Shown here: positions 1 to 42,521 of the stretch, in pieces
Layout of the letters: the number at the start of each line of letters is the position of its first letter
Numbering within the stretch: position 1 is the first letter of the stretch
Program-made: the position numbers and the translations under genes
Notes under the pieces: model-generated
Told to the model about the DNA's origin: nothing
Seen by the model: the letters and a program-made list of their open reading frames with translations, nothing else
Databases searched by the model: none
Source of the DNA: an uncultured Planctomycetaceae bacterium
GTDB lineage: Bacteria > Planctomycetota > Phycisphaerae > SM23-33
DNA: 64,000 nucleotides
Reading direction: 5' to 3'
Assembly (NCBI GenBank): GCA_964607575.1
Contig: CAZSLS010000006.1
Coordinates: 16,581 to 80,580, forward strand

Positions 1-458
1 TTGCGGTCAACTCAGACAGGGCTCTGGTGCCCTGGTTGTCTGATGTCTTCGTCCCATCAACCATTCTGGAAGGTCCCGAAGCCACGGCAGAAGCGCTGGG
101 CGATCTGAACAAGATCGCAAGGACCTTATTGCAGTCCGCAAGATCCCCGAGAAAGAACAAGAAACCTCCCCATGGTTATTCGGAGAGAGGTACGGCAATC
201 GACTCATTCAAGATCGAACTGTTCAGCAAACGGATTCACGAAAAGATAGAGGCATTGAGGAACAGCGAGAGGTTGACGTCGGACGAATGGCAGGTTCTCC
301 ATGCCTTTGTGACTCTAATGCACAGAGACGATGCTACCGGCAGACGTTGGCTCGCCATCCTTGTTGATGAACTCGACGCGATAATGACCCTGTTGTCGGA
401 ATCCTCAATATCCGCACCAAAACGACCACTGACACCACCGGCGATAGGGGACAGTTGA
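1..458 (+). CDS. hypothetical protein, possibly 5'-truncated by the window edge
   Basis: The frame is open from base 3 with no upstream stop. The first in-window start is GTG at 27 and the stop is TGA at 456-458. The region looks AT-richer than its neighbours. No recognisable motif. Confidence 0.3.
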   Translation, partial: AVNSDRALVPWLSDVFVPSTILEGPEATAEALGDLNKIARTLLQSARSPRKNKKPPHGYSERGTAIDSFKIELFSKRIHEKIEALRNSERLTSDEWQVLHAFVTLMHRDDATGRRWLAILVDELDAIMTLLSESSISAPKRPLTPPAIGDS

Positions 459-586
459 AGACAACCGAGCGCCCCTGCCACCGGTTGCGCGTTTTCGTTG
501 CCAATTGCCCCCCGTTGCCGAAATATGTTACCCTATACCTGCCCGGCGGGCAGTTGCTGTGGCGCTTACTTTGGGAGCGATCAAAA

Positions 587-3500
587 ATGATGCGACGGAT
601 TATTAGCGCTTGGGTGGGGGCTGTTTTACTTGTTATCGCAGCGGGCGGGACGACCGTGGCGGCCGCCGAGCCCGTCAAGGCCGATGCTGCCGGTGTCACC
701 CTGGGCGACTGGTACTGCGCAGGTCCGTTTAAGGATGAATTGTTTGGGCTTCATCTCAAGTCGTTTAAGACGGTCTTCCCGCCGGAGAAACAGGTGATTG
801 CGGCGGGTGGGAAGCTTGTTGATCTTTCTGCGGTCTGGGAAGTTGAGAAACTGCCCGGAATGACTTCCACCAGGCGGCGGTGGGTTAAGTTTGGCGATTG
901 GAGCGACGGGTACGTCAATCAACTTCCGGTCGGTCCGCCGCCGATGCGGAATGAGACCTGCTATCTCTATCGTACGATTACTGCCAAAACCGCGGGCAGT
1001 GTCGAGATGCGGATCCTGGCGGTGGATAACATCAAGGCGTGGTTGAACGGTAAGGAAGTGGCGGGGGTGGGCAACCCGGGTCGGTCGGGCGCCTCGCGGT
1101 TCCCGGCCGGTTTGAACGCACAGTTGGAACTGGTGTCCGGAGATAATCGGCTGATGGTGAAGATCACTTCGATGCATGGTAGGCATGGGTTTGCGTTTGC
1201 GATACCGTCGCTCACGCCGTCCAGCAACACTCGTCCGGGCAGACTGGCGAGTACGTACAACCTGGGCTCCGGCGATGAGCCGTACGCCCGCTCGGGCAAA
1301 CTCGTTGCGCCCAAGGCTATGTCGGCGTCTCACGCAAAGGAACGCGTTAAGGCGTTTCGGTTTGATATCGCCCCGATCCCGATGTACGACCCGGCGCGTC
1401 TGAAAATGGTGGAAGATCTCGAGCGGACCGCTTCGGCCACCAGCGGCGCCCGGGCGTATCTCAAGGTGCTGGCGGCGTTGAAACCGAAGATCGGCGGCGA
1501 CGCGGTGGCCGCGGCTGGGCAGATCGAGAAGATGTGGCGCCGGCAGATTCGCAGCCTCGGACCGATAGCGTTTGTGCGCTGCCCGCCGTACCGCGTAAAT
1601 GCGATCGCGCCGTACACCGCTCGCGGTGCCGGACCGGCGAGTATCTGCGTGTTCGATCCCGCCAACGAGAAAGAGCCCATGCGCGTGATCTACGACCGCC
1701 CGGGACTATGCATATTCGACATGAACCTGTCGTACGACGCCAAGACGATATTCTTCGCCGCCCGCAATGGTGGCGAGCCCTGGCACATATACGAGATCGG
1801 CGTCGATGGGAAGGGCCTCAAGCAGATCACCAATGGTTCCAGTAGCGACATATCGCCGACGGTCCTGCCGAGCGGAGAGATAATGTTCGTCTCGACGCGG
1901 GCCGGTACGCGAGTCGTCTGCCAGAAGCAGCCCTCGGGCCTGCTGTACGTTTGCAATCGCGACGGGTCGAACGTGCGGCGGGTGTCGGGCAATACGCTCA
2001 GCGACCACACGCCCCAGGTGATGAACGATGGGCGGGTACTCTTTACGCGATGGGACTACGGCGTCGACAAGAACGTATTCTGCCGCCAGAACCTCTGGAC
2101 CATGAACCCCGACGGGACGCGCTTCGCCCTGTTTGGATCGAACACGAAGGAAGATCCAAACTCGTTCTGGGAGGCCAGTGCCATCCCCGGCCGCCCGGAG
2201 GTCGTGTGCGTCTTCGGGCCTCACCACAGTTATCACGCGGGTATGATCGGCCTGGTGTGGGACCGCCCGGTGGGGTTCCGAAAGGACGTCCGCGGCGAAG
2301 GGTTCAGGTGGGTAACCCCCCAGATGCCGTTTGTCGGCGACACGACCCTGTCGTGGGGCTACCAGGATCCTTGGCCGATAAACGAGCGGTTGTTCCTGGT
2401 GTCGTACGGCGGAGACGGCGGACGAAAGAACCGTTTGTATCTCCTGGACGATCGGGGCAATCGCAAGTGCATCTACGAGGCCGAGGGGAAAATGGGCTGC
2501 TGGGACCCTGTGCTGCTGCGCCCGCGCAAGACGCCCCCGGTGATACCAAACCAGTCGACGCCGGTGAAATACGCCCACCGCACGCCGGCGGAGGCGAACC
2601 TCAATCCCAACGACAAGCTCACCGGAACATTCCTGCTGCAGGACGTTTATGAGGGGCTCGGGCCCACGGTCAAGCGAGGCGAGGTAAAGTCGCTGGCGAT
2701 TATCGAGCAGGTTCCCAAGTATGGCGACCCCGCCGGCGCCCAGATATGGGGTTATTCGCCTACGATTAGCCGCGGGACGATGTTTGTACGGCGGATTATC
2801 GGGACCGTGCCCGTCGAGTCAGACGGATCGGCGCACTTCACGGCCCCGGCGATTCGCGACATATCGTTCAATGCCCTGGATGCCGAAGGGCGCCTGATCA
2901 GGCACATGGGCTCGACGCTGCACATCATGCCTGGCGAGACTCAAAGCTGCCTCGGTTGCCATGAAACGCGGGGCAAGGTTCCCGCCCGCGGTCCGTCCGC
3001 CGTCATTGCCGCCAAGCGCCCACCGTCAGTGCCGAAGTATCCCTCGTGGACCGCCAAGGGAATACTCGACTTCACCAAGGTGGTCCAGCCCGTACTCGAC
3101 AAGCACTGCATCAAGTGTCATTCGGGCCCGACTCCGAAAAAAGGCGTGGACCTCTCCGGCGACAAGACGCACTCGCACTCGATGGCCTACGACCAGTTGC
3201 TCGATCGGGGCATGGTCCACTACGTGCCCGTCGCGGGGACCGGACACGACAACAGCTCCCCGAAGGCCCGCGGTTCGTACGTCTCAAAAATCCGCAAGCA
3301 TCTCGAAACGAACTTTTGCGTGAAAGAGCCGATCCCGCTCGAGGACCGCAAACGCATCTACATGTGGATCGACGCCAACGTACCGTATTTCGGTACGTAC
3401 GAGTTCACCAACTCCCGCGTGATGGGCGGGCGCAGCCGCTGGTACGTTACAGACAAGCGCAAGTGGTTCCGCAGAGATTTCGAGCCCGTGTTCAACCGCC

Positions 3501-4354
3501 GCTGCCTGCCCTGCCACAAACGCTACATCACGCCGCAGACGTATAACTACAATCCGGGCGGTAGGGGGCAGATCATGGTTACCTCGAAGATATGGAACGA
3601 TATCGCGCTGGGTTCGTTCCAGTTGGGACACGGGCGGATATCGATGATCGGGCAGATCGGGCCTGTGCATCGGATCAACCTGACGCACCCCGAATGGTCG
3701 CAGATGCTGATGGCGCCGCTGGCGAAATCGGCGGGCGGGATGGGCCTCTGCAAGGCTGCCGACGGTGGGGCAGTGTTCAAGGACAAACAGGACGCCGACT
3801 ACAAGGCGATCAGCAAGGCGCTGCAAAAAGGCCACGACACTCTGATGGCCGACCCGCGCGTGGACATGCCCGAGGCCCGAAAACCCAAGAATCTCGAAAA
3901 GGCCCGCGAGAAAACTGCCGCCGCCGCGAGTTGGCGGACCAGGAAAGACGGATGGATATCGGCCAGCGCGACCTATCGCGCCAGTTCGATAATACCCAAA
4001 TGGACCACGGACAAGGAAAAGCTGCTGACGGGCAAGCCGTACGCCAACGATTGGGCGTTCTGCACCGAAAGGGAGGACAATCCATACATAATCATCACGC
4101 TCGACAAGGCGTATGCGATAGATGAAGTGCATATCGTAAACCGCGTCAACTCGTGTCAGGAGTTTGCCCGCACGCTTACGATGTGGGTGTCGGCCGACGG
4201 GAAAACGTGGACGAAGACCTGGTCGGCAGGTGGGCGGCCCAGGGCGGACTGGCACGTAAAACTACCTAAAACTCCGAAGGCAAAGTACGTAAAACTGGGC
4301 CTGACCGAGAAGCAGTACCTGGACTTGAAGTACGTTTTTGTCTACGGTAAGTAG
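587..4354 (+). CDS. secreted multidomain protein: N-terminal jelly-roll/lectin-like module, PD40/TolB-like beta-propeller, three CXXCH haem-c motifs, C-terminal F5/8 type C (discoidin)-like module (propeller/CXXCH paralog 1 of 4)
   Basis: ATG at 587 follows GGGAGC. Signal-peptide-like MMRRIISAWVGAVLLVIAAGGTTVAAA. PD40-like LSYDAKTIFF / GVDGKGL / LPSGEIMFVSTR. Motifs CLGCH, CIKCH, CLPCH. Discoidin-like tail NPYIIITLDKAYAIDEVHIVNR...WVSADGKTW. Alignable with the ORFs at 9025, 23986 and 48097(-). Confidence 0.75.
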   Translation: MMRRIISAWVGAVLLVIAAGGTTVAAAEPVKADAAGVTLGDWYCAGPFKDELFGLHLKSFKTVFPPEKQVIAAGGKLVDLSAVWEVEKLPGMTSTRRRWVKFGDWSDGYVNQLPVGPPPMRNETCYLYRTITAKTAGSVEMRILAVDNIKAWLNGKEVAGVGNPGRSGASRFPAGLNAQLELVSGDNRLMVKITSMHGRHGFAFAIPSLTPSSNTRPGRLASTYNLGSGDEPYARSGKLVAPKAMSASHAKERVKAFRFDIAPIPMYDPARLKMVEDLERTASATSGARAYLKVLAALKPKIGGDAVAAAGQIEKMWRRQIRSLGPIAFVRCPPYRVNAIAPYTARGAGPASICVFDPANEKEPMRVIYDRPGLCIFDMNLSYDAKTIFFAARNGGEPWHIYEIGVDGKGLKQITNGSSSDISPTVLPSGEIMFVSTRAGTRVVCQKQPSGLLYVCNRDGSNVRRVSGNTLSDHTPQVMNDGRVLFTRWDYGVDKNVFCRQNLWTMNPDGTRFALFGSNTKEDPNSFWEASAIPGRPEVVCVFGPHHSYHAGMIGLVWDRPVGFRKDVRGEGFRWVTPQMPFVGDTTLSWGYQDPWPINERLFLVSYGGDGGRKNRLYLLDDRGNRKCIYEAEGKMGCWDPVLLRPRKTPPVIPNQSTPVKYAHRTPAEANLNPNDKLTGTFLLQDVYEGLGPTVKRGEVKSLAIIEQVPKYGDPAGAQIWGYSPTISRGTMFVRRIIGTVPVESDGSAHFTAPAIRDISFNALDAEGRLIRHMGSTLHIMPGETQSCLGCHETRGKVPARGPSAVIAAKRPPSVPKYPSWTAKGILDFTKVVQPVLDKHCIKCHSGPTPKKGVDLSGDKTHSHSMAYDQLLDRGMVHYVPVAGTGHDNSSPKARGSYVSKIRKHLETNFCVKEPIPLEDRKRIYMWIDANVPYFGTYEFTNSRVMGGRSRWYVTDKRKWFRRDFEPVFNRRCLPCHKRYITPQTYNYNPGGRGQIMVTSKIWNDIALGSFQLGHGRISMIGQIGPVHRINLTHPEWSQMLMAPLAKSAGGMGLCKAADGGAVFKDKQDADYKAISKALQKGHDTLMADPRVDMPEARKPKNLEKAREKTAAAASWRTRKDGWISASATYRASSIIPKWTTDKEKLLTGKPYANDWAFCTEREDNPYIIITLDKAYAIDEVHIVNRVNSCQEFARTLTMWVSADGKTWTKTWSAGGRPRADWHVKLPKTPKAKYVKLGLTEKQYLDLKYVFVYGK

Positions 4355-4450
4355 GACGTCCCCGAGCGTCGGTCCCCAGCGTGAGATCAGGGAATTCTGA
4401 CGTCGCGGTAGGCGTAAGGTATTTAGGGGCGCTATAATAAAACTACAAGT

Positions 4451-4472
4451 CGCCCGGTGGAGTAGCCGGGCG
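4451..4472. other. GC-rich stem-loop (7-bp stem, 8-nt loop) between paralog 1 and the corrinoid gene
   Basis: cgcccgg-tggagtag-ccgggcg is a perfect inverted repeat. No T-tract follows, so a terminator role is uncertain. Confidence 0.25.
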
Positions 4473-4492
4473 AGTCCCCACTCAATTTAAGG

Positions 4493-5173
4493 ATGGTCCG
4501 GATGGACATTCGAGAATCACTGGTCGCAAAGATTATGAACGCAGATCGGGCCGGAGCCGGCGCGCTGCTGGTGGAATGGGGCTGGCAGAACGGGTATAGG
4601 AAACTTCTCCCGGAAGTGCTCGAACCGGTTCTGCGGGAGATCGGAGAGTTGTGGACGGCCCCGGATGGGATATCCCTGGCGCAGGCGTATATTGCCGCCA
4701 AGGTAGCCGAGGACGTCATTGGCAAGATTGGCGACATCGTTGCGGATCCCGGATCCGATCCGGTCGAGTCGCGCGGACCCGTGGTCATCGGAAACATCGA
4801 GGACGACTTCCACGCACTGGGACGCCGAATGGTTGGTACCTTCCTCCGGACCGATGGTTGGGACGTTCACGATATGGGCAATGACGTACCGGCCGCCGAT
4901 CTGGTCGACCAGGCCGTCGCCGTCGGCGCGAAGGTCATCGGCGTCTCGGCGATGATGCGTACGACCGCGGAGAACATTCCCGCCGTTCGGGCGGAGTTGG
5001 ACCGGCGGGGCTTGACGGGCAAGATTCAACTCGCAGTCGGCGGCGCGGTATTCGTGCTCCGCCCGGAATTGGTCGAGGAAGTCGGCGGCGACGGGACTGC
5101 CGCAAATGCACTGGCGGCGCCGGCGCTGTTCGAGAAACTCGCGCGCCGGGCCTGCGGTGAGGAAAGCGAGTGA
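4493..5173 (+). CDS. cobalamin (B12)-binding corrinoid protein, MtaC/MtbC-like
   Basis: DxHxxG motif (DFHALG), then SxM/L (SAMM) and GG (VGGA) at the spacing typical of B12-binding Rossmann domains, with a helical N-terminal cap. An alternative ATG at 4502 is possible. Confidence 0.8.
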   Translation: MVRMDIRESLVAKIMNADRAGAGALLVEWGWQNGYRKLLPEVLEPVLREIGELWTAPDGISLAQAYIAAKVAEDVIGKIGDIVADPGSDPVESRGPVVIGNIEDDFHALGRRMVGTFLRTDGWDVHDMGNDVPAADLVDQAVAVGAKVIGVSAMMRTTAENIPAVRAELDRRGLTGKIQLAVGGAVFVLRPELVEEVGGDGTAANALAAPALFEKLARRACGEESE

Positions 5174-6201
5174 ACAGTCGACAGCGCATCATGGCGACGG
5201 TCGCCGGCGATCCTGCGGACCGCCCCGCATTCACCGCCACGCTGAGTCTCTACGGCGCCGCCCTGACGGGCTGTCCGCTGCAGCAGTACTATACCAGTGC
5301 CGCGGCCTACGCCGATGGGCAGGCTGCGGTCGCCGAGATCTTCGGACCTGACATCCTCTTCACGCCATTTTCCTGCCCGGCGGAGGGAGAGGCCTTCGGG
5401 ACAGAGGTGGCGTTCTTCGAGCACCAGCCTCCCAACGTGGTCCGCCCGGCGGTCTCGTCGGTCGAGGAGATTGCTTCTCTGGCGATACCCGACGTCGAAG
5501 CGCATCCCAGGCTGATGTACATTCGCGAGGCGCTGCGGACGATGGTCTCGGCGCACGGTCGGGAGCGGGCGATAGCGGGAATTGCGCTGAGCCCGGTTGG
5601 CGTGCCTCTGATGATTATGGGGATCAGCGGTTGGATGGAGACGGTGCTGTTCGATCCGCAAGGCGCGCGGCGCATGTTGGACGTGACGCGCCCGTTCTCC
5701 GTGCGGTGGGTTAACGCGCTGCTGGGCGACGGGGCCGACTTCGTTGCCATGCCCGCGGGAATGCTCAGCCCATTGATCGTGACGCGGGAAATCGCCGAGG
5801 ATTTCACCCGCCCCGCGCTGGTCGAAGCGCTGGAGGAGGTCGACGGGCCTGTCATTCTGCACCACGCCGGCGGACCATGCACGAGGCATCTCGACCTGTT
5901 CGTGGGGCTTCCGAACGTTATCGGCGTGGTCATCGATAATCGCGACGACCCCGGCGAGGCCCGCAGGATTCTCGGACCGGAGATGGTGCTGCTGGCCGGC
6001 CCGAGCGGACCGGAACTACCCGAATGCACTGTCGATCAGATCGAGGCCGATTGCAGGAGCCGGCTCACCAGATGCAACGGCGATTCGAAGGCCATCCTGG
6101 CAACAGCGGCAGCCGACATACCACTGGCGACGCCGGCGGAGAATATACATGCGATTTGCCGGGCGGTCGGGGCTTATGCGGAGGGGGGGCAAGATGGCTA
6201 G
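5170..6201 (+). CDS. uroporphyrinogen decarboxylase (URO-D) family / MtaA-like methylcobamide methyltransferase homolog
   Basis: N-terminus NSRQRIMATVAGDPADRPA resembles the MtaA/URO-D start (..eR....l.g...DR.P). About 340 aa. GTG at 5170 overlaps the upstream TGA (GTGA). No H-x-C zinc motif is visible. Confidence 0.65.
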   Translation: MNSRQRIMATVAGDPADRPAFTATLSLYGAALTGCPLQQYYTSAAAYADGQAAVAEIFGPDILFTPFSCPAEGEAFGTEVAFFEHQPPNVVRPAVSSVEEIASLAIPDVEAHPRLMYIREALRTMVSAHGRERAIAGIALSPVGVPLMIMGISGWMETVLFDPQGARRMLDVTRPFSVRWVNALLGDGADFVAMPAGMLSPLIVTREIAEDFTRPALVEALEEVDGPVILHHAGGPCTRHLDLFVGLPNVIGVVIDNRDDPGEARRILGPEMVLLAGPSGPELPECTVDQIEADCRSRLTRCNGDSKAILATAAADIPLATPAENIHAICRAVGAYAEGGQDG

Positions 6202-6796
6202 TCGGGAGATCGTTTGTGTGGTCTGCGGGATTTTTGAAGTGGAACTTCGGGCGCTTCAAGAGCAAGGCGAACTATCGTATCCGCTACGTTTTCTCTCTTC
6301 GATGCTGCACATGGTACCCGAGGAACTCGCCAGGAAACTCACCTGCGCCGTCGATGCAGAACTCCACGCCGGGCGCCGCGTCATCGTGGTCTACGGGGAC
6401 TGTCATGCGTCGATGCCCGAAATGGTGAATCGACCGAACGTCGTACGCACCAACGGTATCAACTGTTGCGAGTTGCTGCTTGGGTCGCAGCGCTACCGAA
6501 AACTCCGCGCCGAGGGCGCGTTTTTCATGATGAACGACTGGGCCATGCGCTGGCAAGAGGTCTTCACCGAGAGATTGGGACTCTCGGAAACCAACGCAAC
6601 CGACCTGATGCGCGAGATGCACGCGAAGCTGATCTATATCGACACCGGCGTGACGCTCCTACCGCGGGCGGAATTGGAGGCGATGAGCGCCTATTGCGGA
6701 CTGGAATGGGAGGTGCTGACGGTTTCACTGGAACCGTTGCTGGAAACGATTACCGACGCGGTGGGGCGACTGGACGAGCAGGGAGAGATCGAGTGA
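6194..6796 (+). CDS. DUF1638-like protein
   Basis: MASREIVCVVCGIFEVEL...LHMVPEEL...VVYGDC...NCCELLLGS matches my recollection of DUF1638 (Cys-rich, about 200 aa, found beside corrinoid methyltransferases). ATG at 6194 overlaps the upstream gene by 8 nt. Confidence 0.6.
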   Translation: MASREIVCVVCGIFEVELRALQEQGELSYPLRFLSSMLHMVPEELARKLTCAVDAELHAGRRVIVVYGDCHASMPEMVNRPNVVRTNGINCCELLLGSQRYRKLRAEGAFFMMNDWAMRWQEVFTERLGLSETNATDLMREMHAKLIYIDTGVTLLPRAELEAMSAYCGLEWEVLTVSLEPLLETITDAVGRLDEQGEIE

Positions 6797-8883
6797 GAGG
6801 TGCCTCGGGACATACCGACCCGGCGTATGCATCCTTCACGCTGGACATGGTCAACGGCCTGCTTCGCCATACGGGCAACGTGCAGCAGGCCGCCGACCAC
6901 CTTACCGAGCAATTGCGAGAGGTGACCGGCGCCAGGACGGTCATCGTGCTTCGAGCGATGAGCCCCGAACGCGGTGGTCCGTGTCGCGCCGTAAGCGTTA
7001 ACCCCCAGCGACGCGGAGCGATCGCCGATTCGCCCGAGGCTTCGAATCTGTTTGCGCTATGTGGCGATCTGGCGCAGACGGCCCTGTGGCGAGCGGGCGA
7101 CGGCGGTCCGGCGGCGAGAGTTATCGAGGCGCTCGATTGCGGGCTGACGGCGGCCGTTCCGCTGCGCGTGGAGGACAACTACATCGGATGCATCCTCGCA
7201 CTCGATCTGCCAGACGACCGCCAGGGGGATATGGTTGCGGCGTGTCTGGACACGGTCGCCGGAATTGTCGCCCTCGTGCTTCACGGCGCCTTCCTGAGCG
7301 AGCAACAGGACAATATCATCGAGGCTCGCACCGCGGAACTGCGGAGTTCGCACGCCTTCCTGCAGACCGTTATGGACGCCGACCCCGAGAGCATCCTCGT
7401 GATCGATCGCGATTATCGCATCGCACTGGGAAACCTCGCGGCGCGAAGGCGGGCGGGCGATGGCGGCGATATTGTCGGGCACAAGTGCCACGAGATCTGC
7501 CACGGAAACGACACCCCCTGCGACGAGACTGATCGCGTCTGTCCGTTGCGGCGGGTGCTGAAAACCGGCGTGCCGGTTACGGTCGTGCATAAGCATGCCG
7601 ACGAGGGCGGCGACGGAGCGATCATGGAAGTGACGGCCGCTCCGATCTTCGATACCGACGGGCAGATCGTACAGGTTGTCGAGGTCGCCCGCGATATAGC
7701 GCAGCGCGTCCGGGCCGAGGATGAGCGTGAGAAACTGGAAGCCCAACTCCGCCAGGCGCAGAAAATGGAGGCTGTCGGGCAACTGGCCGGAGGGATCGCC
7801 CACGACTTCAACAACCTGTTGCAGGCGATCCTGGGCTACGGCGAGATGGCACATTCCGATGCTGAGCCGGGCGGCCACGTTCGCGATTTTGTCGAGGAGG
7901 TGCTGAAGGCGGGGCATCGCGCCAAGACGCTGGTCAGCCAGTTGCTGGCCTTCAGCCGGAGGCAGGTGCTCGAGATGGAGGACCTGGACCTCAATGAAGT
8001 GATCGCTGACCTGATGAAGATGATCCGACGCGTCATCGGTGAATATATTACGCTCGATGTTCTTCTCGGGCACGACCTCGGAACTGTCCGGGCCGACCGC
8101 GGACAGATCGCGCAGATCCTGACGAACCTTTGCGTCAATGCTCGCGACGCGATGCCTGAAGGCGGAACGATCACCATCGAAACCGAGAACGTCAGGATCG
8201 ACCAGGAGTATTGCGAGTCCCACACCTGGGCCAGACCGGGACGATACGTACTGCTGAGCGTGACCGACATGGGCTGTGGGATGGACGCCGAGACCATGGG
8301 GCGAGTCTTCGAACCCTTCTTCACCACCAAGGTCGTTGGCAAGGGCACGGGTCTGGGCCTCTCGACCGTCTATGGCCTGGTCAAACAGCACGAGGGATAT
8401 ATCCAGGTCTACAGCGAAGTCGACAAGGGCACGACGTTCAAAACCTATCTGCCCGTGGTCGAACGCTCCGTGACGGCCGTCGGCGACAAGATCGAAGGCC
8501 CCATCCCGGGCGGTAGCGAGACGATCCTGCTGGCCGAAGACGACGAAATGGTGCTCACACTATCCGAGGCCATACTGACCCAGGCGGGGTATACTGTGCT
8601 GACCGCCGCCGACGGCGCCGAGGCGCTGAGCTTGTTCGAAGAGAACGCCGATGCGATTGGCTTGGCGATCCTGGATGTGGTGATGCCCAAACTTGGCGGA
8701 CATGCCGTCTTCGAGCGGATTCGCCCCAGGCATCCGGATGTGCGCGTGCTCTTTGCCAGCGGATACAGCATGAACGCCATCCACACGAACTTCGTCCTCG
8801 ACGAGGGTTTGGCGCTCATCCAGAAACCGTATCAACGCGCCAACCTTCTCCGCAAAGTGCGGGAGATGCTCGACCATAAATGA
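6793..8883 (+). CDS. soluble hybrid sensor histidine kinase (GAF-like, PAS with Cys4 motif, HisKA, HATPase_c, receiver)
   Basis: H-box [10 protein letters not shown]-box [11 protein letters not shown]-boxes DMGCGMD and GTGLGLS, receiver ILLAEDDE...[14 protein letters not shown] at 6793 overlaps the DUF1638 stop (GTGA). An alternative ATG lies at 6847. No TM segment seen. Confidence 0.85.
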
Positions 8884-8959: not shown

Positions 8960-9024
8960 CAGGGGGCGTTGGTTTGCATGAAGAACAGAAACCGATAACC
9001 CTCAGGCTGTTCAGGAGTATTAAG

Positions 9025-11514
9025 ATGACGTGTCCCCGAAAAGTGTTGGCTGTGGTACTTATTTCGATTCTTTGTTTGCAGATTTCGGCGGTCCGGGCGG
9101 CGAATGTCGTCGGCGGGACACCTGAAGTTGTTCATGCCGACTGGAAAGCGCAATATCTCCAGACCAAGAACCAGATTGGAGGCAAGGGGCGGAATCGTTT
9201 TCCAGCCGAGCAGATCCTCAACGCACAGGCGACGATACTGGATACGGACAAGACCCCGCTGGACGTCGCCCTGCGTCGCATAGCGGCGGTTGTCAAGAAG
9301 CTCAAGGGGCTGAAAGGCGTTGGCGATCTGAGCGGGGCAGAAAAGACGATCGCCCAAATCAAGGCCGCCGCCTCCAAAGACGGCGCCGACGTGGAGGCGC
9401 TCTACATGACGTTGCGAGCGGCCGGTCGCAAGGCGATCCTGTCGAACCCGCTACTGAAAGCCGACGATCTGCTGTTTGTCTCACGCGGAGTTCTCAACGA
9501 CGCATCACGGCGGAAGTCCGAGTACGACGGCGATCATTTCTGCGATCAGTACTACGGGCACAACGGCAGGACCGGCGGGGGGCTGTTCATCCTGAAGAAC
9601 TACAAAACCGATGCTCCGAAGCTGGTGAACGTCGTGAAAGGCCTGAAGGTCCCCAGCGGTACGAACAAGGGCAAGCTGATGGAAGAAGGAGCGTTCATCT
9701 CGCCGGATCTTTCCTTTGACGGCAAGACGATACTCTTTTCCTGGAGCAGCGGCGTCAAGACGAAATGGAGCCCCGAAACCAGGTTCAGCGTCTTCAAGAT
9801 CGGCGTCGATGGCAAAGGGCTCACCCGCCTGACCGACGGTTGCTTCGACGATTTCGACCCATTCTGGCTGCCCAATGGTCGGATCGTTTTCATGTCGACG
9901 CGTAGATACGGGTTCGGTCGCTGCCACGGCCGCCCCGTCCCGGCGTTTACGATGTTCTCGATAAAGCCCGACGGAAGCGACATGTACAGCATCGACTTCC
10001 ACGAGACCAACGAGTTCCATCCCAGCGTCGACAATCGCGGTATGCTCGTCTACACGCGCTGGGACTACGTCGACCGCGACCACAACGGCGCCCACCATAT
10101 GTGGCATTGCTATCCGGACGGGCGGGACCCGCGGTCGTTCCACTCCAACTACGCGCTGCCCTTCAGCACGGTCGATCCTAAGGCGCCCAAGCCCCGCGGA
10201 ATTAACATGCGTCCATGGGCGGAATTCAACTGTCGTTCGATACCCGGGTCCAACAAGTACGTCGCCACCGCCGGACCGCATCACGGACAGGCGTTCGGTT
10301 CGCTCGTGCTGATCGACATCAGCGTCCCCGACGACAACAAAATGTCGCAGACCAAACGCATCACGCCGGACGTGAGGTTCCCCGAATCCGAAGGCGGCGT
10401 GCGCGGATTCGATAAGATGACGTATGGTACGGCATGGCCTCTGAGCGAGAGCTTCTACCTGTGCAACTACAAGGATACCGCCAGCCTGATCGACGAAATG
10501 GGCAACAGGGAAATCATCTGCAAGACCACCAACGGGCTGCGGATACTCGACCCGACGCCCGTTCGCGCCAGGAAGAAACCGCCGATTATCGCCACCCAGA
10601 CCTACCAGGGCGAAAGGCTGAAAGCAGACTCGCCGACCGCCACCATAAGCGTGATGAACGTCTACGTCACCGACGAATACGGGAAACTCCCCAAGGGTTC
10701 GAAGATCAAGCATATGCGTATCGTCCAGGTGCTTCCCAAGTCGACCCCGCGTGCCAACAACCCGAGGATCGGACGCGGCGATCAATCCCTGGCGAGAATC
10801 CCGCTGGGCGTGGTCCCGGTCGAGGCCGACGGAAGCGTTTCATGCGAGGCTCCGGTCGGAAAGGCGATCTACTTCCAACTGCTGGACGCAAACGGAATGG
10901 CCGTTCAGTCCATGCGGTCGGTCACGTACGTTCACCCCGGCGAGCGGTTGTCGTGCATCGGTTGTCACGAGGACAAGTGGGGCGCACCGCCGTCGGCCGC
11001 ACGCCCGCTTGCAATGCGACGGGCGCCTTCGGAACTCAAACCGGAGGTCAAGAATAACGTGATGTTCAGCTTCCATCGCAACGTCCGTCCGGTGTTCGAC
11101 GCCAAATGCGTCAAGTGCCACAAGTCCAAGAAGGACGCCGGTCCCACGAATATGTCGTTCGGCGCTCTGGGCAAGTACACGTTCTACTTCGGGCATGGAT
11201 ACCACAGGAACATGTCCGGCGGAACGCGCACGAAACCGGGTCAGTTCGGCGCGATGTTCTCGAAGATGGGCAAGGCGCTGATGAGCCCCGGGCATCTGAA
11301 AGCGATGAAGGCGGGCAAGTTCACCGCCGAGGACCGGCGGAGCGTCTTCATGTGGCTGGACATGAACTCCAACGAGTTCACCGCGTACCTGGACGTGGCC
11401 GCGCAGAGGGAGGGAAAGATAGTCTGGCCGAAGTACGACGTGGACCCGAAGAACTACACCGGTGTCGAGAAGCGCAGCGCGGTGGTCACGGCGACCCCCG
11501 CTTCGTCGCGATAG
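9025..11514 (+). CDS. secreted PD40 beta-propeller + two CXXCH motifs (propeller/CXXCH paralog 2 of 4)
   Basis: AGGAG lies 7 nt before ATG 9025. Signal peptide MTCPRKVLAVVLISILCLQISAVRA. Blocks FISPDLSFDGKTILF, WLPNGRIVFMSTR, HPSVDNRGMLVYTRWDYVDRD, VPVEADGS...LSCIGCHE, VRPVFDAKCVKCH. Confidence 0.75.
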   Translation: MTCPRKVLAVVLISILCLQISAVRAANVVGGTPEVVHADWKAQYLQTKNQIGGKGRNRFPAEQILNAQATILDTDKTPLDVALRRIAAVVKKLKGLKGVGDLSGAEKTIAQIKAAASKDGADVEALYMTLRAAGRKAILSNPLLKADDLLFVSRGVLNDASRRKSEYDGDHFCDQYYGHNGRTGGGLFILKNYKTDAPKLVNVVKGLKVPSGTNKGKLMEEGAFISPDLSFDGKTILFSWSSGVKTKWSPETRFSVFKIGVDGKGLTRLTDGCFDDFDPFWLPNGRIVFMSTRRYGFGRCHGRPVPAFTMFSIKPDGSDMYSIDFHETNEFHPSVDNRGMLVYTRWDYVDRDHNGAHHMWHCYPDGRDPRSFHSNYALPFSTVDPKAPKPRGINMRPWAEFNCRSIPGSNKYVATAGPHHGQAFGSLVLIDISVPDDNKMSQTKRITPDVRFPESEGGVRGFDKMTYGTAWPLSESFYLCNYKDTASLIDEMGNREIICKTTNGLRILDPTPVRARKKPPIIATQTYQGERLKADSPTATISVMNVYVTDEYGKLPKGSKIKHMRIVQVLPKSTPRANNPRIGRGDQSLARIPLGVVPVEADGSVSCEAPVGKAIYFQLLDANGMAVQSMRSVTYVHPGERLSCIGCHEDKWGAPPSAARPLAMRRAPSELKPEVKNNVMFSFHRNVRPVFDAKCVKCHKSKKDAGPTNMSFGALGKYTFYFGHGYHRNMSGGTRTKPGQFGAMFSKMGKALMSPGHLKAMKAGKFTAEDRRSVFMWLDMNSNEFTAYLDVAAQREGKIVWPKYDVDPKNYTGVEKRSAVVTATPASSR

Positions 11515-17120: not shown

Positions 17121-17474
17121 ATGAGCACTACCAGCAAGTCGCCACGGAAGGTCGCGCTGGTCGCATTGGCGGTCGCCGAACAAACCCTGCCGCCTTACAG
17201 CCATCGATTCAGCCCAAGGACCTTCACCCAACCGCAACTGTTCGTCTGCCTGGCGATCAAGACGTTTTTCAGAACCGATTACCGGGGCGTCACGGCCATC
17301 CTGGCTGACATGCCCGATCTGTGCACGGCCATCGGTCTTCTGAAAGTTCCGCATTTCACCACGCTGCAAAAAGCGGCTTGCCGGTTGATGGCTTCAGCCG
17401 TTCCAAGAAGCTCTTGGAAGGGACCATTCGCCAGGCGTTGGGCGAACAACCGCGGGTCGAATTGGCGGCCGTAG
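17121..17474 (+). CDS. transposase N-terminal part (orfA frame)
   Basis: YSHRFSPRTFTQPQLFVCLAIKTFFRTDYRGVTAILADMPDLCTAIGLLKVPHFTTLQKAACRL resembles the N-terminus of IS4/IS5-type transposases. The frame ends in non-homologous residues after about 17400. Confidence 0.6.
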   Translation: MSTTSKSPRKVALVALAVAEQTLPPYSHRFSPRTFTQPQLFVCLAIKTFFRTDYRGVTAILADMPDLCTAIGLLKVPHFTTLQKAACRLMASAVPRSSWKGPFARRWANNRGSNWRP

Positions 17475-18079
17475 ACTCCACCGGAATGGAATCCCGTCAC
17501 ATCAGCCGATACTTTGTCCGCCGCCGATCACGCTTGGCAACCCTTTGGCAAACAACTTATTACACAAAGTATCCTAAGCTCGGAGTTGTCTGCGATTGCC
17601 AAAGCCACATTATCCTCTCAACGCTTCGCAAGCGGGGGCCGACGCCCGACATTAACCAACTTCGCCAGACGCTCCGTCCAGCCGTTGGTCGAGCTCAAAT
17701 CAAGACATTGCTGGCCGACGCCGGATATGACTCCGAAGCAAATCACACGTTCACACGAGAGCAACTTGGAATTGAAACGATCATCCCTCCCCGTCATGGG
17801 CGTCCCAGCATCCGCCCGCCAACGGGCAAATATCGCAGATTGATGCGAGAAGAACTTGACACCGAACGCTACGGCCAGCGTTGGCAAGTCGAGACGGTGT
17901 TCTCAATGATCAAACGTAACCTGGGCAGCGCCCTGCACGGGCGAAGCTACTGGTCGCAGTGCAGAGAATTGATGCTTCTTGCGATCACACACAATATAAT
18001 GATCATTATGCTTGTGGAGCTTTTCTACAGAGCAGTCCTGCCCCCTTTTTCTGGAGCCGTAAAGGAATACGATCCATGA
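17321..18079 (+). CDS. transposase catalytic part (orfB frame, -1 relative to orfA)
   Basis: DDE residues in AVDSTG and LLADAGYDSE, plus YGQRWQVETVFSMIKRNLG (Y-2-R-3-E-6-K). The ORF runs through the right IR and stops at the TGA overlapping the next gene's ATG. The homologous part probably begins near 17400. Confidence 0.7.
   Translation: MHGHRSSESSAFHHAAKSGLPVDGFSRSKKLLEGTIRQALGEQPRVELAAVDSTGMESRHISRYFVRRRSRLATLWQTTYYTKYPKLGVVCDCQSHIILSTLRKRGPTPDINQLRQTLRPAVGRAQIKTLLADAGYDSEANHTFTREQLGIETIIPPRHGRPSIRPPTGKYRRLMREELDTERYGQRWQVETVFSMIKRNLGSALHGRSYWSQCRELMLLAITHNIMIIMLVELFYRAVLPPFSGAVKEYDP
18017..18035. repeat. IS right inverted repeat core
   Basis: gagcttttctacagagcag is the exact reverse complement of 17035-17053. 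Confidence 0.9.
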
Positions 18080-20637
18080 GACGATTCGGAATGTTGGCGT
18101 GCCTGCTCGCGTGTCTGTTTGCTTCGGTTGGACAGGCGGTCGAACCGATCCGTCTGGCAAATAAGCATATCCGGGCTGATTTCAAGTTGATCGGTGGCGC
18201 GTGGGCCAACTGTGGTCTTTCGCGGGCCGACGGGTCGGATGCGATGAGACTGGTCAGCGACGAGTTCGAGGTTCTCCTGTTTGATGACACTCGCTTCACG
18301 GCCGCAGACTACCGGGCGGGCGACCCCAAGCGAATAATCGGCAACGATGGATCGCAGGTGATGGTGATCGAGTACAAGCCTGAAGCCTCGACGTCTCCCA
18401 AAGCGCCTCGCAGGGTGACGGTCGCCTACGAGCTTGGCAAGGGACCATATCTCCGCAAGATCGTTACGATCGCGATGAAAAAAGGCGAGAAGGTCGACCG
18501 ACTGAGCGTGCTGCGATTCTCGACGTCGACAAAAGCCTCTCGCGGCGGGCGGGGCGAGGCGGTGTTCCTGGGCAACTGGTTCGTCGGGGCGGACTATCCG
18601 TGCTTCTATAGTCGGCATAGCGACGGATTTGCCAATCCCGATTATTTCTACCGCTGGGATTACATGATAGATCTCGCCGGCGGCGATAAGATTCTGGCCC
18701 CGCGCAAGGGTCTGGTGTCGGTGTTTCATTTTCCCGGATACGCCCGCTTGCAGGCCGGAGGCAAGTGGGAGATCGTTTCCAAACGTGCGGTTATCGGTTT
18801 GAGCAAGGCCAAGGGCGACAATGCGGAGTTGGCGCTGTTCGATTACATCGCCGAAACGCGAAAACCTCCTCGCAGCCACCTGCACTACAACAACTGGTAC
18901 AGCCCCGAAGGCAAGAACCTCAGCGTCGACAAGTTCATCCCGAACGTCTACAAACCCATCAACGACAAGCTGAAAAAGTACGGGGCTAAACTCGATGCGA
19001 TAGTGCCTGACCACGGATGGCAGAACACCAAGGCGTTCGAATACATATTCCAGCCGCAGGTCAACGCCACCCACTCACCGCTGCCCGAACTCGCTAAAGC
19101 TCTGATGGACTCAGGCAAAACGCACCTGGGGATTTGGATGGCGCTGGACGGGACGAACAACTCCACCGCACACGGACTGAAAATCGGCTACAAGCCCGCA
19201 TACGCCAAAGGCTTCAAACGCGAGGCCAAATGGATGGCGGGCAAGGCGTACTTCAACATACTCGACCCGAAATACCAGCGCGACCTCAAGAAGGCGCTGA
19301 AGTTCCTGATCGTCGATGCGGGAGTGGACTATATCAAGCACGATTTCAACCACAACTTCACCAGCAACTACATCTCGCAGCGTCACGCGCGCGAGGCCTG
19401 CCTCGACGTGACGCTCGGCCTGCTGAAGTACGAACGGTCGCTTAATCCGAAGGTCTACCAGAATTACACCAACGGATCGTGGTTTTCGCCATGGTGGTTG
19501 CAGCATGTAGATTCGCTGTGGATGATGTCGGGCGATTCGGGCAACTCTCGCAAGTATCCGCACCTGGCGCATCGCGACCGTTCAACGTCGTATCGCGACG
19601 AATATTTTTTCCAGAATTTCAACAACCCCCAGCGCACCGCCCGGCCGGTGATTCCGATCGCCAACTTCATGACGCACGGGATCATTTATTCAGCCAAGAA
19701 GCCCTTCACCGACGGGCACGACCTGCTGGAAAACTGGTCGAATCACGTTGTGATGTACTACGCACGCGGGACGATGGTCAAGGAACTCTACCTCACGCCG
19801 AAGCTGCTCAGCGAGGCCCAGTGGGAAGTGCTGGGGCGGGCGTCCGACTGGGCGCAGCGCAACCAGCATCGCCTGAAGAACACGGTGATAATCGGCGGGG
19901 ATCCGGGCAAGGGCGAGATTTACGGGCTTATCAGTTGGGTCGGTGGGCGGGCGATACTCACCGTTCGCAATCCCAACCGCAACGCTCAAACACTAACCGT
20001 ACCGTTCGACTGGACGGTCTACTACCGCGGCGCAAAGGGCAAGGCGTACCGGGCGCGGGCGATCTATCCGTTCGTCGAACAGATGCCCTGGGTGCTGACT
20101 TCGGGCCAACCGTTCAAAGTAACGGTCCCCGGCGACACGGTGATCGTTTACGAGATTGATCCGGGCCGACCGCCTGAGACGCCGGCGGCCGAGGCCAAAC
20201 CGTTACCGGTGACCAAGGCGACAGTCGACGGCGATGCGATCGTTATGAAGTTGCGGGTGCCTGACGAGGCGATGGAACGCTACGAACTGATCATCCAGCC
20301 GTGGGGTACAATCGACGTGGAACTCACCATCGACGGTAAGCCCGTTCCGGCCCGCCAATCATCCAAGGACGCTCGATGGAGCATCCACGCGTTCGGCCTT
20401 GCGTCATACCGCGGCAAGACGATAGCTCTCCGGGCCCGCCTCAAGGCCGACCCCGCCGCCAAGCGAAAGCCTCGCCCCAAGACTCCGACCGAAGCATGGG
20501 TCATCGCCGACCGTCCCGTAACCGCCAGGCCCGAGCCCTCCGACCGGCATCTGCCCAAACCGATCTCGCAGAACTATCGCCGAGTAACCCAAAACGTTCT
20601 GACCAAACGAAGCGTTCCGGTATCCACGGGCAAGTAG
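18076..20637 (+). CDS. secreted putative glycoside hydrolase, alpha-galactosidase-like (clan GH-D-like) TIM barrel
   Basis: Signal peptide MRRFGMLACLLACLFASVGQA. IVPDHGWQN and VDYIKHDFNHNF resemble the DDGW and (Y)IKWD(M/F)N motifs of GH27/36 enzymes. Family assignment is tentative. Confidence 0.4.
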   Translation: MRRFGMLACLLACLFASVGQAVEPIRLANKHIRADFKLIGGAWANCGLSRADGSDAMRLVSDEFEVLLFDDTRFTAADYRAGDPKRIIGNDGSQVMVIEYKPEASTSPKAPRRVTVAYELGKGPYLRKIVTIAMKKGEKVDRLSVLRFSTSTKASRGGRGEAVFLGNWFVGADYPCFYSRHSDGFANPDYFYRWDYMIDLAGGDKILAPRKGLVSVFHFPGYARLQAGGKWEIVSKRAVIGLSKAKGDNAELALFDYIAETRKPPRSHLHYNNWYSPEGKNLSVDKFIPNVYKPINDKLKKYGAKLDAIVPDHGWQNTKAFEYIFQPQVNATHSPLPELAKALMDSGKTHLGIWMALDGTNNSTAHGLKIGYKPAYAKGFKREAKWMAGKAYFNILDPKYQRDLKKALKFLIVDAGVDYIKHDFNHNFTSNYISQRHAREACLDVTLGLLKYERSLNPKVYQNYTNGSWFSPWWLQHVDSLWMMSGDSGNSRKYPHLAHRDRSTSYRDEYFFQNFNNPQRTARPVIPIANFMTHGIIYSAKKPFTDGHDLLENWSNHVVMYYARGTMVKELYLTPKLLSEAQWEVLGRASDWAQRNQHRLKNTVIIGGDPGKGEIYGLISWVGGRAILTVRNPNRNAQTLTVPFDWTVYYRGAKGKAYRARAIYPFVEQMPWVLTSGQPFKVTVPGDTVIVYEIDPGRPPETPAAEAKPLPVTKATVDGDAIVMKLRVPDEAMERYELIIQPWGTIDVELTIDGKPVPARQSSKDARWSIHAFGLASYRGKTIALRARLKADPAAKRKPRPKTPTEAWVIADRPVTARPEPSDRHLPKPISQNYRRVTQNVLTKRSVPVSTGK

Positions 20638-20951: not shown

Positions 20952-22388
20952 TTAAGTGATCCGCTCGGGCATGATCGCGTTGTTCTTCACCAGCCAGGTT
21001 TCGAGATCGGCTTTCATTTGTGCGGCTATTTTCGGGTGCTGCTTGGCGATGTTCACTTTCTCCGAGATATCTTTCGACAGATCGTACAACTCGACCGATC
21101 CGTCGAGATACCACTTGATGAGCTTGTACTTGCCTTGCCTGATCGCCCCACCCAGGCCGTTGGACCTGTGGAAGGCGTAGTTGGGGTAGTGGAAGTGGAT
21201 GGCTTTACGCGTGAGGGGCCCCTTTTGCGTCAGCAGGGGCGTGATGTCCTCACCGTCGATGATCTGTCCACGCTGCGGTTGCAATCCGGCCGCTGACAGC
21301 AGGGTCGGGTAAAAGTCCGTGCTGATAATCGGCGTGGCGCAGGTCGTATTCGGGGGCACGATCCCTGGCCAGCGGATGATGGTCGGTACGCGAATCCCGC
21401 CTTCGTAGAGGTGTCCCTTGTCCAGGCGAAGCGGTCTGTTGTCGCCCACGCCGCCGTAGGCGCCGTTGTCGGACGTGAAGATCACCAGCGTCTCGTCGCG
21501 GATGCCCAGTTCGTCGACTTTCGCGAACAGTCGCCCCATGGCCGTATCCATCGCTTCGAGCATGGCGGCGTATCGCGCGTCCTTGATGCCCGGCCCGATG
21601 CGAGACTTGTACTTCTCGATCAGCGGATTCGGCGCCTCCATCGGCCAGTGTACCGTGTAGTTCCACAGTGACAGGAAGAACGGTTGCTTTTTGGCTCGGC
21701 TGGCGGTGATGAAACTCATCGCTTCGTCGCACAGGCGGTCAGGCAGGTACTCACCGGCCTTGCGGGGCTTGAGATTGTAGATCTTGTAGGGATCCCAGTA
21801 GGTCGGCGGTCCGCCGTAGCAGCATCCGCCAATGTTAATGTCGAAACCCTGGTTCTCGGGATTGAACCTGTCGTCGCCGCGGCCTTGATCGTTGCCCTTG
21901 CGTTTCCCGCTCATGTGCCATTTGCCCATGAAGGCGGTGGCGTATCCGGCGGATTTGAGGCGTTCGGCGATGGTGACCTTCTCAAGCGGCAGGACGTTGA
22001 TTGTCTTGGCGGACTTGAGCTTGGCGCCTTTGGGCTCGAAGCGCGGGTGGTCGGGGATGTGGTTAGTGATCATCAGGCGGGCCGGCGACTGCCCCGACAT
22101 GATCGACGCCCGCGTGGGTGAGCACACCGGTGCGGCCGCGTAGGCGTCGGTGAATCGCATACCATCTTTGGCGAGCTTGTCGATATGCGGCGTGTCGAGA
22201 TTCTTGTTGCCTTGGCAGTGCAGGTCCATCCAGCCCATGTCATCGACCATTATCAGGATGATATTGGGCTTCTTGCCGGCCTTGCCGGATGCTGTCGTGG
22301 AGATTGCCTGCTTGCAGCCGCCCAGCGATACCGCCGCGGCGCCGAGTGCGACGGTTTTGAGAAATTCACGTCTGTTGTGTTGCTTCAT
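20952..22388 (-). CDS. Cys-type sulfatase (arylsulfatase family), Tat/lipoprotein signal
   Basis: NRREFLKTVALGAAAVSLGGC, formylglycine motif CSPTRASIMSG, IIMVDDMGW, GKWH. Confidence 0.9.
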   Translation of the reverse strand: MKQHNRREFLKTVALGAAAVSLGGCKQAISTTASGKAGKKPNIILIMVDDMGWMDLHCQGNKNLDTPHIDKLAKDGMRFTDAYAAAPVCSPTRASIMSGQSPARLMITNHIPDHPRFEPKGAKLKSAKTINVLPLEKVTIAERLKSAGYATAFMGKWHMSGKRKGNDQGRGDDRFNPENQGFDINIGGCCYGGPPTYWDPYKIYNLKPRKAGEYLPDRLCDEAMSFITASRAKKQPFFLSLWNYTVHWPMEAPNPLIEKYKSRIGPGIKDARYAAMLEAMDTAMGRLFAKVDELGIRDETLVIFTSDNGAYGGVGDNRPLRLDKGHLYEGGIRVPTIIRWPGIVPPNTTCATPIISTDFYPTLLSAAGLQPQRGQIIDGEDITPLLTQKGPLTRKAIHFHYPNYAFHRSNGLGGAIRQGKYKLIKWYLDGSVELYDLSKDISEKVNIAKQHPKIAAQMKADLETWLVKNNAIMPERIT

Positions 22389-22397
22389 GGAAGTTCC

Positions 22398-23911: not shown

Positions 23912-23940
23912 TTGAAATGCCCGCTGCAAACCGGTACGCT
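23912..23940 (+). promoter_or_regulatory. candidate sigma70-like promoter (TTGAAA-17 nt-TACGCT) for the paralog-3 operon
   Basis: TTGAAA at 23912-23917, a 17-nt spacer, TACGCT at 23935-23940, about 45 nt upstream of ATG 23986, in the divergent intergenic region shared with the sulfatases. Confidence 0.3.
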
Positions 23941-23985
23941 ATGTTAACGCAGGCGGGGTGGTTCTATACAAAGGTGAGAAACGAA

Positions 23986-38623: not shown

Positions 38624-38654
38624 GGTATCGCCTTTCTGGCGGGGGGTGTGGGTG

Positions 38655-42436: not shown

Positions 42437-42521
42437 CTTCCTGACAAGATCTATTGGCTTGCTCAGGACATGGGTTTGGATACAATCACTTCAAATGAAC
42501 TCAATTGCAGGGAGAATGCAG

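Follow-up and report, generated by a model that had tools for sequence, protein, structure and literature searches.

Four consecutive plus-strand genes at positions 4493-8883 of a 64-kb (64,000-nt) stretch of contig CAZSLS010000006.1, from an uncultured Planctomycetaceae bacterium, raise the question of why a corrinoid protein, a URO-D-fold methyltransferase homologue and a DUF1638 protein should be encoded directly ahead of a hybrid histidine kinase. The whole stretch is referred to here as the window, and the four genes as the cassette. A sequence-only reading of the locus had proposed a corrinoid-based sensory device rather than a catabolic methyltransferase pathway, and comparative genomics supports that proposal. 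We estimate a probability of about 65% that the four genes form one signalling device, in which the corrinoid provides sensory input to the kinase. A more specific version of this claim is that the cassette represents a new class of two-component input, in which the cobalt state is written by the URO-D-fold methyltransferase and DUF1638, read by a GAF domain, and which has spread horizontally through at least 234 species. This version might equally well prove right or wrong.

The arrangement recurs widely. When one genome per species was scanned by corrinoid-protein alignment, relatives of the first gene product were found in 234 species. The loci of the best 80 of these species, those with the closest corrinoid-protein relatives, were annotated with hidden Markov models made from the four parts; the other 154 were left out. 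The corrinoid protein, the URO-D homologue, DUF1638 and the GAF protein are encoded in the same order and on one strand in 71 of the 80 loci, and the linkage to a kinase is thus not unique to this genome. Of the nine other loci, four are interrupted by contig ends and five are variants. Carriers span about 15 phyla. They include Planctomycetota, Verrucomicrobiota and many Desulfobacterota, together with Acidobacteriota, Chloroflexota, Bacteroidota, Spirochaetota, Nitrospirota, Armatimonadota, Sumerlaeota, the Alpha-, Beta- and Gammaproteobacteria (Accumulibacter, Competibacter, Thiodiazotropha) and, among the archaea, Methanoperedenaceae and Methanospirillum. Sampling through the other genes gave a similar picture. 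All six contexts reached through URO-D homologues held the cassette (a Phycisphaerales metagenome-assembled genome, or MAG, Geobacteraceae, Geothrix and three others), as did two of the three reached through DUF1638 (Anaeromyxobacter paludicola and a deltaproteobacterial contig), the third being an orphan DUF1638. Three contexts reached through the GAF domain comprised one full cassette, one contig starting inside DUF1638, which is consistent with a cassette, and one orphan kinase.

Within this conserved order, the input side is constant and the output side is not. The downstream protein always opens with the same GAF domain, while the number of PAS domains and the domains that follow them vary. 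Among 67 downstream proteins, HATPase_c was found in 64, HisKA in 60, HisKA_2 in 3, HWE_HK in 3 and a receiver (REC) domain in 48; in one further genome (L006) a PAS-GGDEF output takes the place of the kinase. An exhaustive search of representatives located the cassette GAF domain in 417 protein clusters. In the best 150 of these 417 matches it lies nearly always at residues ~5-185, or at ~200-385 behind a fused DUF1638. Fusions join neighbouring parts of the cassette: URO-D with DUF1638 (P0029), DUF1638 with GAF, PAS and histidine kinase in a Phycisphaerales relative (L001), DUF1638 with GAF, PAS and GGDEF (L006), and DUF1638 with GAF in four additional cluster representatives. The pairwise identities of the four parts also covary over 70 loci (r = 0.79-0.88).

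The genes are coupled at every junction. They occupy 4493-5173, 5170-6201, 6194-6796 and 6793-8883, with overlaps of 4, 8 and 4 nt; the coordinates given in the sequence-only reading, including a 138-nt spacer ahead of the first gene, were reproduced from the open reading frames (ORFs). At junction 1, a GTGA overlap at 5170-5173, the TGA of the corrinoid gene (5171-5173) overlaps the GTG start of the URO-D gene at 5170, with GAGGAA ahead of the start. The 8-nt overlap at junction 2, ATGGCTAG (6194-6201), combines the ATG at 6194, which is preceded by GGAGGGGGGG, with the TAG at 6199-6201, and junction 3 is a second GTGA overlap (6793-6796), preceded by AGGGAGAG. A purine-rich, Shine-Dalgarno-like run lies ahead of each cassette start. 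With start codons picked heuristically, overlaps were counted at 72 of 79 orthologous first junctions, 60 of 74 second junctions and 60 of 69 third junctions, one of the last being a fusion. Public gene calls on the same sequence place the starts of genes 2 and 3 later, giving a URO-D protein of 336 aa and a DUF1638 protein of 164 aa, and would abolish two of the overlaps. Because the short calls would delete residues kept in orthologues (R6 in 76 of 78, C11 in 73 of 74), and because orthologue lengths (341-343 aa for the URO-D-like protein, ~200 aa for DUF1638) fit the longer forms, comparison of the sequences identifies the overlapping starts as the right ones. The overlaps therefore survive scrutiny of the start codons and recur in orthologues. 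Taken together, the constant input with interchangeable transmitters, the Rosetta-stone fusions and the translational coupling into the kinase argue for an input module rather than for a pathway that happens to have a regulator beside it.

An ordinary corrinoid methyltransferase operon would offer a different account of the same genes. The second methyltransferase (MT II) and the activase would then lie elsewhere in the genome, and the kinase would be a transcriptional regulator that senses the substrate through its GAF and PAS domains. Indeed, the products of genes 1 and 2 are similar to MtaC/MtaA-type pairs, a kinase gene is present in known catabolic cassettes such as mec (PMC9768040), and the DUF1638 protein of Phaeobacter inhibens serves a metabolic enzyme (PMC5764234). 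However, in several genomes DUF1638 shares one polypeptide with the kinase or with a GGDEF protein, the enzyme-kinase junction 3 overlaps as tightly as the other junctions, the GAF domain is specific to the cassette, and many hosts are not known as methylotrophs. Moreover, no MT II, activase or transporter is conserved beside the cassette in the 80 loci or present in the window, and a complete catabolic set of substrate:corrinoid methyltransferase (MT I), corrinoid protein, MT II and activase was found neither in the window nor in the flanks of those loci. When all sizeable ORFs of the window were scanned with Pfam, no pterin-binding methyltransferase, no MttB/MtaB-type enzyme and no RamA-like activase turned up. 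These scans bear out, for the whole 64 kb, the earlier claim that a reductive activase and a tetrahydrofolate-side enzyme are absent; the accompanying statement that there is no MT1 is imprecise, as the URO-D fold includes MT I enzymes. Clustering of the flanks of the 80 loci (1642 ORFs) yielded no fifth conserved gene, the sole recurrent neighbours being further PAS, kinase or receiver proteins at 35 loci. On balance, an ordinary operon of this kind appears unlikely.

In two unrelated carriers (L002, 1899-5962; L007, 11524-16883), the cassette adjoins genes for hybrid-cluster protein (Prismane) together with Rrf2, glutaredoxin or ferredoxin-thioredoxin-reductase genes. This neighbourhood, which is not recurrent over the 80 loci, may point to a connection with nitrosative or redox stress.

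The sequence-only reading had left room for an incomplete O-demethylase acting on methylated sugars, which would tie the cassette to the fucan and sulfatase genes that surround it here. This was rejected. The neighbours of the cassette differ in every lineage, and its carriers, among them sulfate reducers, Geobacteraceae, Holophagaceae, Bacteroidales, Accumulibacter and methanogens, place it in unrelated genomic settings. Gene 2, furthermore, has the same polar residues across phyla, and this uniformity favours a common metabolite or a general condition over a niche substrate such as methylated sugars.

The first gene (4493-5173, plus strand) encodes a corrinoid protein of 226 aa with a helical cap and a Rossmann domain. 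Pfam PF02310 matches it at 3e-20 (72.7 bits against a cutoff of 32.1), which identifies the B12-binding Rossmann domain. The match to the helical cap family PF02607 is weak (17.9 bits, under the cutoff of 23), and TIGR02370 scores 82.1 bits, far under its cutoff of 215.3. Relatives in the PDB are corrinoid proteins, the B12 domain of MetH and CarH. The DxHxxG...SxM...GG signature seen in the initial reading was located as D105-x-H107-x-x-G110, S152-x-M154 and G183-G184, and D105, H107, G110, S152, G183 and G184 are conserved in all 80 orthologues. Judged by these residues, gene 1 has the ligands for a cobamide in the base-off/His-on mode of methyltransferase corrinoid proteins. Proteins of this type cycle between Co(I) and CH3-Co(III) and lapse into inactive Co(II).

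The similarity to CarH raises the possibility of a light sensor, in which the Co-C bond of a methyl- or adenosyl-cobamide would be photolysed, the URO-D-like protein and DUF1638 would restore the dark state, and the kinase would read the result. Similarity to CarH/LitR extends over cap and Rossmann domain (PDB 8c31 and 5c8a at ~1e-7; NCBIfam CarH at 1e-12). The published signature of the adenosylcobalamin (AdoCbl) light response consists of GxxW, EH, GxxH and GxxxP (PMC11796333). Its GxxW element is present in the gene 1 family (G51 in 78 and W54 in 70 of the 80 orthologues), but EH is replaced by A/G/V followed by Y/F, and GxxH by D-D-F-H. The carriers are mostly dark-living anaerobes (sulfate reducers, methanogens, groundwater and sludge MAGs), and photoprotection genes are not recurrent nearby. 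A photoreceptor is accordingly very improbable.

The second gene (5170-6201, plus strand) encodes a URO-D-fold, MtaA-like methyltransferase homologue of 343 aa. PF01208 matches over the full length (1e-39, 136.8 bits), in agreement with the URO-D TIM-barrel fold, and the closest solved structure is Methanosarcina mazei MtaA (4ay7, profile E 2.5e-21), followed by UroD and CdmB. That the H-x-C zinc motif is missing, as first suspected, was confirmed by alignment to 4ay7 and across 78 orthologues. The LHICG of MtaA corresponds to LHHAG and its PGCG to TAAA. The zinc histidine is retained as H231 in 77 of the 78 orthologues. By contrast, the position of the first zinc cysteine is occupied by G, V, A or T, with Cys in just four, and that of the second by G, A, S or N, with Cys in none, so that the MtaA-type site His-x-Cys...Cys is absent across the family. 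D61, R265 and D316 are invariant among the 78, and H231, W155 and T321 nearly so. Curated NCBIfam models score far lower than for true members: 80.7 bits against a cutoff of 235.4 for mtaA_cmuA (TIGR01463), 60 against 600 for MtbA and 57 against 400 for MtaA. The loss of HxC speaks against a thiol acceptor but not against methyl transfer, because the zinc-free URO-D-fold protein CdmB is a proven substrate:corrinoid methyltransferase (PMC13222342). By analogy with CdmB, gene 2 itself could be the "missing" MT1.

The product of the third gene (6194-6796, plus strand; 200 aa) is an alpha/beta protein that belongs to DUF1638, as proposed before (Pfam PF07796 at 9e-29, 100.8 bits against a cutoff of 27). 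Residues C11, H39, C70 and C91 are conserved in 73-74 of 74 orthologues and are kept even in a distant DUF1638 clade of 20-23% identity. In the AlphaFold2 model (mean pLDDT confidence score 94.5), strands beta1 to beta4 are each followed directly by one of the four, an arrangement that points to a possible metal or Fe-S site; the clustering of the residues is deduced solely from these positions. A Foldseek search of the model against the PDB gave no match at E<=1e-3 (best E 3e-3, TM <=0.42); the fold has no solved relative and offers no clue to function. A split B12-dependent methionine synthase depends genetically on DUF1638, which occurs together with a RamA-like activase (PMC5764234) and is induced together with corrinoid enzymes (PMC12478193). 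These findings link the family to maintenance of the cobalt state.

The fourth gene (6793-8883, plus strand) encodes a hybrid histidine kinase of 696 aa. Its N-terminal GAF domain, specific to this module, spans aa 1-186 (6793-7350) and has conserved P71-x-R73, P123-L124 and G132. It is followed by a PAS_4 domain (7375-7713), a transmitter comprising HisKA, with H-box AHDFNN, and HATPase_c (7777-8457; 2e-9 and 6e-22), and a receiver domain (8524-8859; Response_reg 3e-17). The soluble GAF-PAS-HK-REC architecture deduced at the outset is thereby upheld. No confident transmembrane segment was predicted; a membrane-bound kinase was considered and rejected, as the sole hydrophobic stretch (aa ~150-170) forms, in the structural model, the helix that ends the GAF domain at its C-terminal side. 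Pfam gave no GAF match for the N-terminal domain of the window protein, and 5 of 9 orthologues match GAF weakly. The fold was assigned from the AlphaFold2 model (pLDDT 90), for which Foldseek returned 372 PDB matches at E<=1e-3, the top ones being GAF domains. The two residues of the P-x-R motif are conserved in 74 and 73 of 74 orthologues.

The PAS_4 domain, which varies among orthologues and lies outside the conserved core, carries a four-cysteine motif at ~7486-7551 (aa ~232-253) that may be a metal or Fe-S site. A part for this motif in the common mechanism was rejected. The PAS domain of the closest orthologue (L001) is without it; the motif is for this reason regarded as lineage-specific, and it would be a second input confined to this lineage.

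Bilin-binding GAF domains of phytochromes head the structural matches of the GAF model, and this opens a further alternative, a tetrapyrrole maturation system in which the three upstream proteins would make, modify or deliver a ligand for the kinase GAF domain. URO-D enzymes do act on tetrapyrroles, and the conserved P-x-R could bind propionates. Phytochromes, however, dominate the GAF structures in the PDB, so that the ranking, with TM-scores of ~0.6, may be a sampling effect, and the GAF domain has no conserved Cys or His. The gene 2 family profile also fits MtaA over its whole length far better than the best UroD structure (E 1.7e-11), and the matches to UroD leave the N-terminal 70 residues unaligned, as they do not start until about profile position 71. 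Such a maturation system is most improbable.

How might the sensory device favoured here operate? The URO-D-fold enzyme would exchange a methyl group between the cobalt of the corrinoid protein and some small molecule. With its Cys3-His site, DUF1638 would help to establish or restore the state of the cobalt, for instance by supplying electrons for reductive re-methylation, and it might double as an adaptor that contacts the kinase. The kinase GAF domain, in contact with DUF1638 and/or the corrinoid protein, would then read the Co(I), Co(II) or CH3-Co(III) state of the complex of these two proteins and respond with altered autophosphorylation, the signal passing through the receiver domain into a phosphorelay. 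Since a second methyltransferase that could take the methyl group off again is missing, the half-reaction would serve as a detector and not as a pathway. Among conceivable inputs, the status of a methyl donor or of one-carbon metabolism under reducing conditions would rank first, followed by redox state or oxidants that destroy Co(I) (O2, N2O, NO), then cobamide availability and, last, light.

Several observations weigh against this proposal. Two loci (L032 and L038) are without DUF1638, and in a third (L051, 2250-5224) both enzymes are absent and the GAF kinase comes immediately after the corrinoid protein. Stand-alone GAF kinases and DUF1638 genes exist (L013, L011). Gene 2 may transfer no methyl groups at all, given that it falls far short of the curated MtaA/CmuA cutoffs and is without the zinc site. 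The cassette is without an ATP-dependent activase to reach Co(I). Regulators co-transcribed with their target genes are common, and this too would give conserved linkage. Finally, for the cofactor, the methyl transfer, the protein contacts and the response of the kinase, the support is purely genomic or drawn from predicted structures.

The locus without enzymes also speaks for another kind of device, a sensor of cobamide availability, in which the kinase would tell holo from apo corrinoid protein, or one bound cobamide from another, and the URO-D-like protein and DUF1638 would do no more than load, repair or condition the cofactor. The invariant B12 ligands would suit such a sensor, and as neither a cobalamin riboswitch nor any other Rfam family was matched anywhere in the 64-kb window, a protein sensor of B12 would not be redundant there. 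Detection of binding, on the other hand, needs no two conserved accessory enzymes with invariant catalytic-looking residues, and genes for B12 transport or biosynthesis are not recurrent in the flanks. This alternative is rather improbable.

The three incomplete loci L032, L038 and L051 and two further variants, one with two URO-D copies and without DUF1638 and GAF (L027), the other lacking the GAF protein (L028), can be used as natural deletion experiments.

The spacer upstream of the cassette (4355-4492, plus strand; the upstream gene ends at 4354) is a probable promoter region. It contains a GC-rich hairpin at 4450-4473, with an 8-bp stem, 20 nt upstream of the corrinoid gene and without a T-run on the plus strand. 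A scan for promoters and terminators gave no signal above shuffled expectation.

The surroundings are a polysaccharide locus of Phycisphaerales type that encodes sulfatases, fucosidases and four propeller proteins with an HZS_alpha domain. The last are large paralogues (455-4354, 8974-11514 and 23917-26568 on the plus strand; 48097-51273 on the minus strand) that combine the middle domain of hydrazine synthase alpha (PF18582) with beta-propeller repeats; F5/8 type C or NPCBM domains are added in some. The cassette lies between two of the four. In L001, the Phycisphaerales relative, the upstream paralogue alone is present, with Peptidase_M54 next in line, and the copy at 8974-11514 is on this basis an extra one here. 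Two sulfatases, an FGE-type sulfatase-maturing enzyme and two GH29 alpha-L-fucosidases (20952-23855, minus; 26581-29451, 31353-32309 and 42459-43967, plus) suggest a region for utilisation of sulfated fucan; it is not associated with the cassette in other genomes. A DDE_Tnp_1 transposase gene (17321-18079, plus) is followed by a long ORF (17959-20637, 892 aa) without a Pfam match, and the minus strand at 34901-38782 encodes a 1293-aa protein with HEAT/Armadillo repeats and two 3-keto-disaccharide hydrolase domains (PF06439).

To our knowledge, signalling roles of B12 have so far been limited to light-sensing regulators (CarH, AerR, photocobilins) and riboswitches. The cassette is regarded here as a new form of B12-based signalling that stands a fair chance of being a class of its own. 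No description of it was found in the searchable full-text literature, subscription journals not being covered, and a survey of B12-domain signalling proteins does not mention URO-D, uroporphyrinogen, MtaA or DUF (PMC8717448). If the proposal is right, it would mean chemical, non-photic sensing through a methyltransferase-type corrinoid protein coupled to a histidine kinase, and would give DUF1638 its first mechanistic role, as an adaptor or reductase for the corrinoid state. The cassette also offers a testable handle on DUF1638, a family genetically required for corrinoid enzymes. Its carriers include organisms of process relevance (Accumulibacter, Competibacter, Geobacteraceae, sulfate reducers, Methanoperedens), and the cultured carriers Anaeromyxobacter paludicola, Geothrix and Desulfocicer vacuolatum make the hypothesis directly testable.

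With the known corrinoid methyltransferase systems MtaABC, MtbA/MtmBC, the Odm/Vdm/Mto O-demethylases, chloromethane Cdm and mec, the cassette shares a stand-alone corrinoid protein (DxHxxG...SxL...GG) beside a URO-D-fold homologue. In contrast to these systems, it has one methyltransferase-like gene, with no MT II, pterin enzyme or RamA-type activase in cassette, flanks or window; genes 1 and 2 fall far under the NCBIfam cutoffs, the zinc cysteines are absent family-wide, and the terminal gene encodes a GAF signalling protein. In the split methionine synthase of Phaeobacter inhibens, as here, DUF1638 adjoins a gene for a B12-binding cap and domain, and it is needed for corrinoid enzyme function (PMC5764234); the C/H/C/C residues are common to the distant DUF1638 clade. 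The cassette differs in having neither homocysteine and pterin modules nor a nearby RamA-like partner, and in that DUF1638 precedes or is fused to a kinase. A helical-cap B12 domain also serves signalling in CarH/LitR, AerR/PpaA, photocobilins and photoglobin-B12 proteins, with similarity over cap and Rossmann domain. Unlike in these regulators, the sensor of the cassette is separate from its output, EH and GxxH of the AdoCbl light signature are missing, two enzyme-like companions are present, and the output is a GAF histidine kinase that would be reached by protein contact. At the level of these defining features, the cassette is outside the curated MtaA/CmuA, MtaC/MtbC/MtgC and CarH families. 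In the H-NOX/HnoK systems, the gene for a small haem protein is transcribed together with that for a histidine kinase or GGDEF protein, and the haem protein controls this partner by protein-protein contact. The cassette would follow the same logic, with a corrinoid in place of haem, two accessory enzymes and a dedicated GAF docking domain, and can be likened to a corrinoid methyltransferase system that has been cut short and connected to a two-component transmitter.

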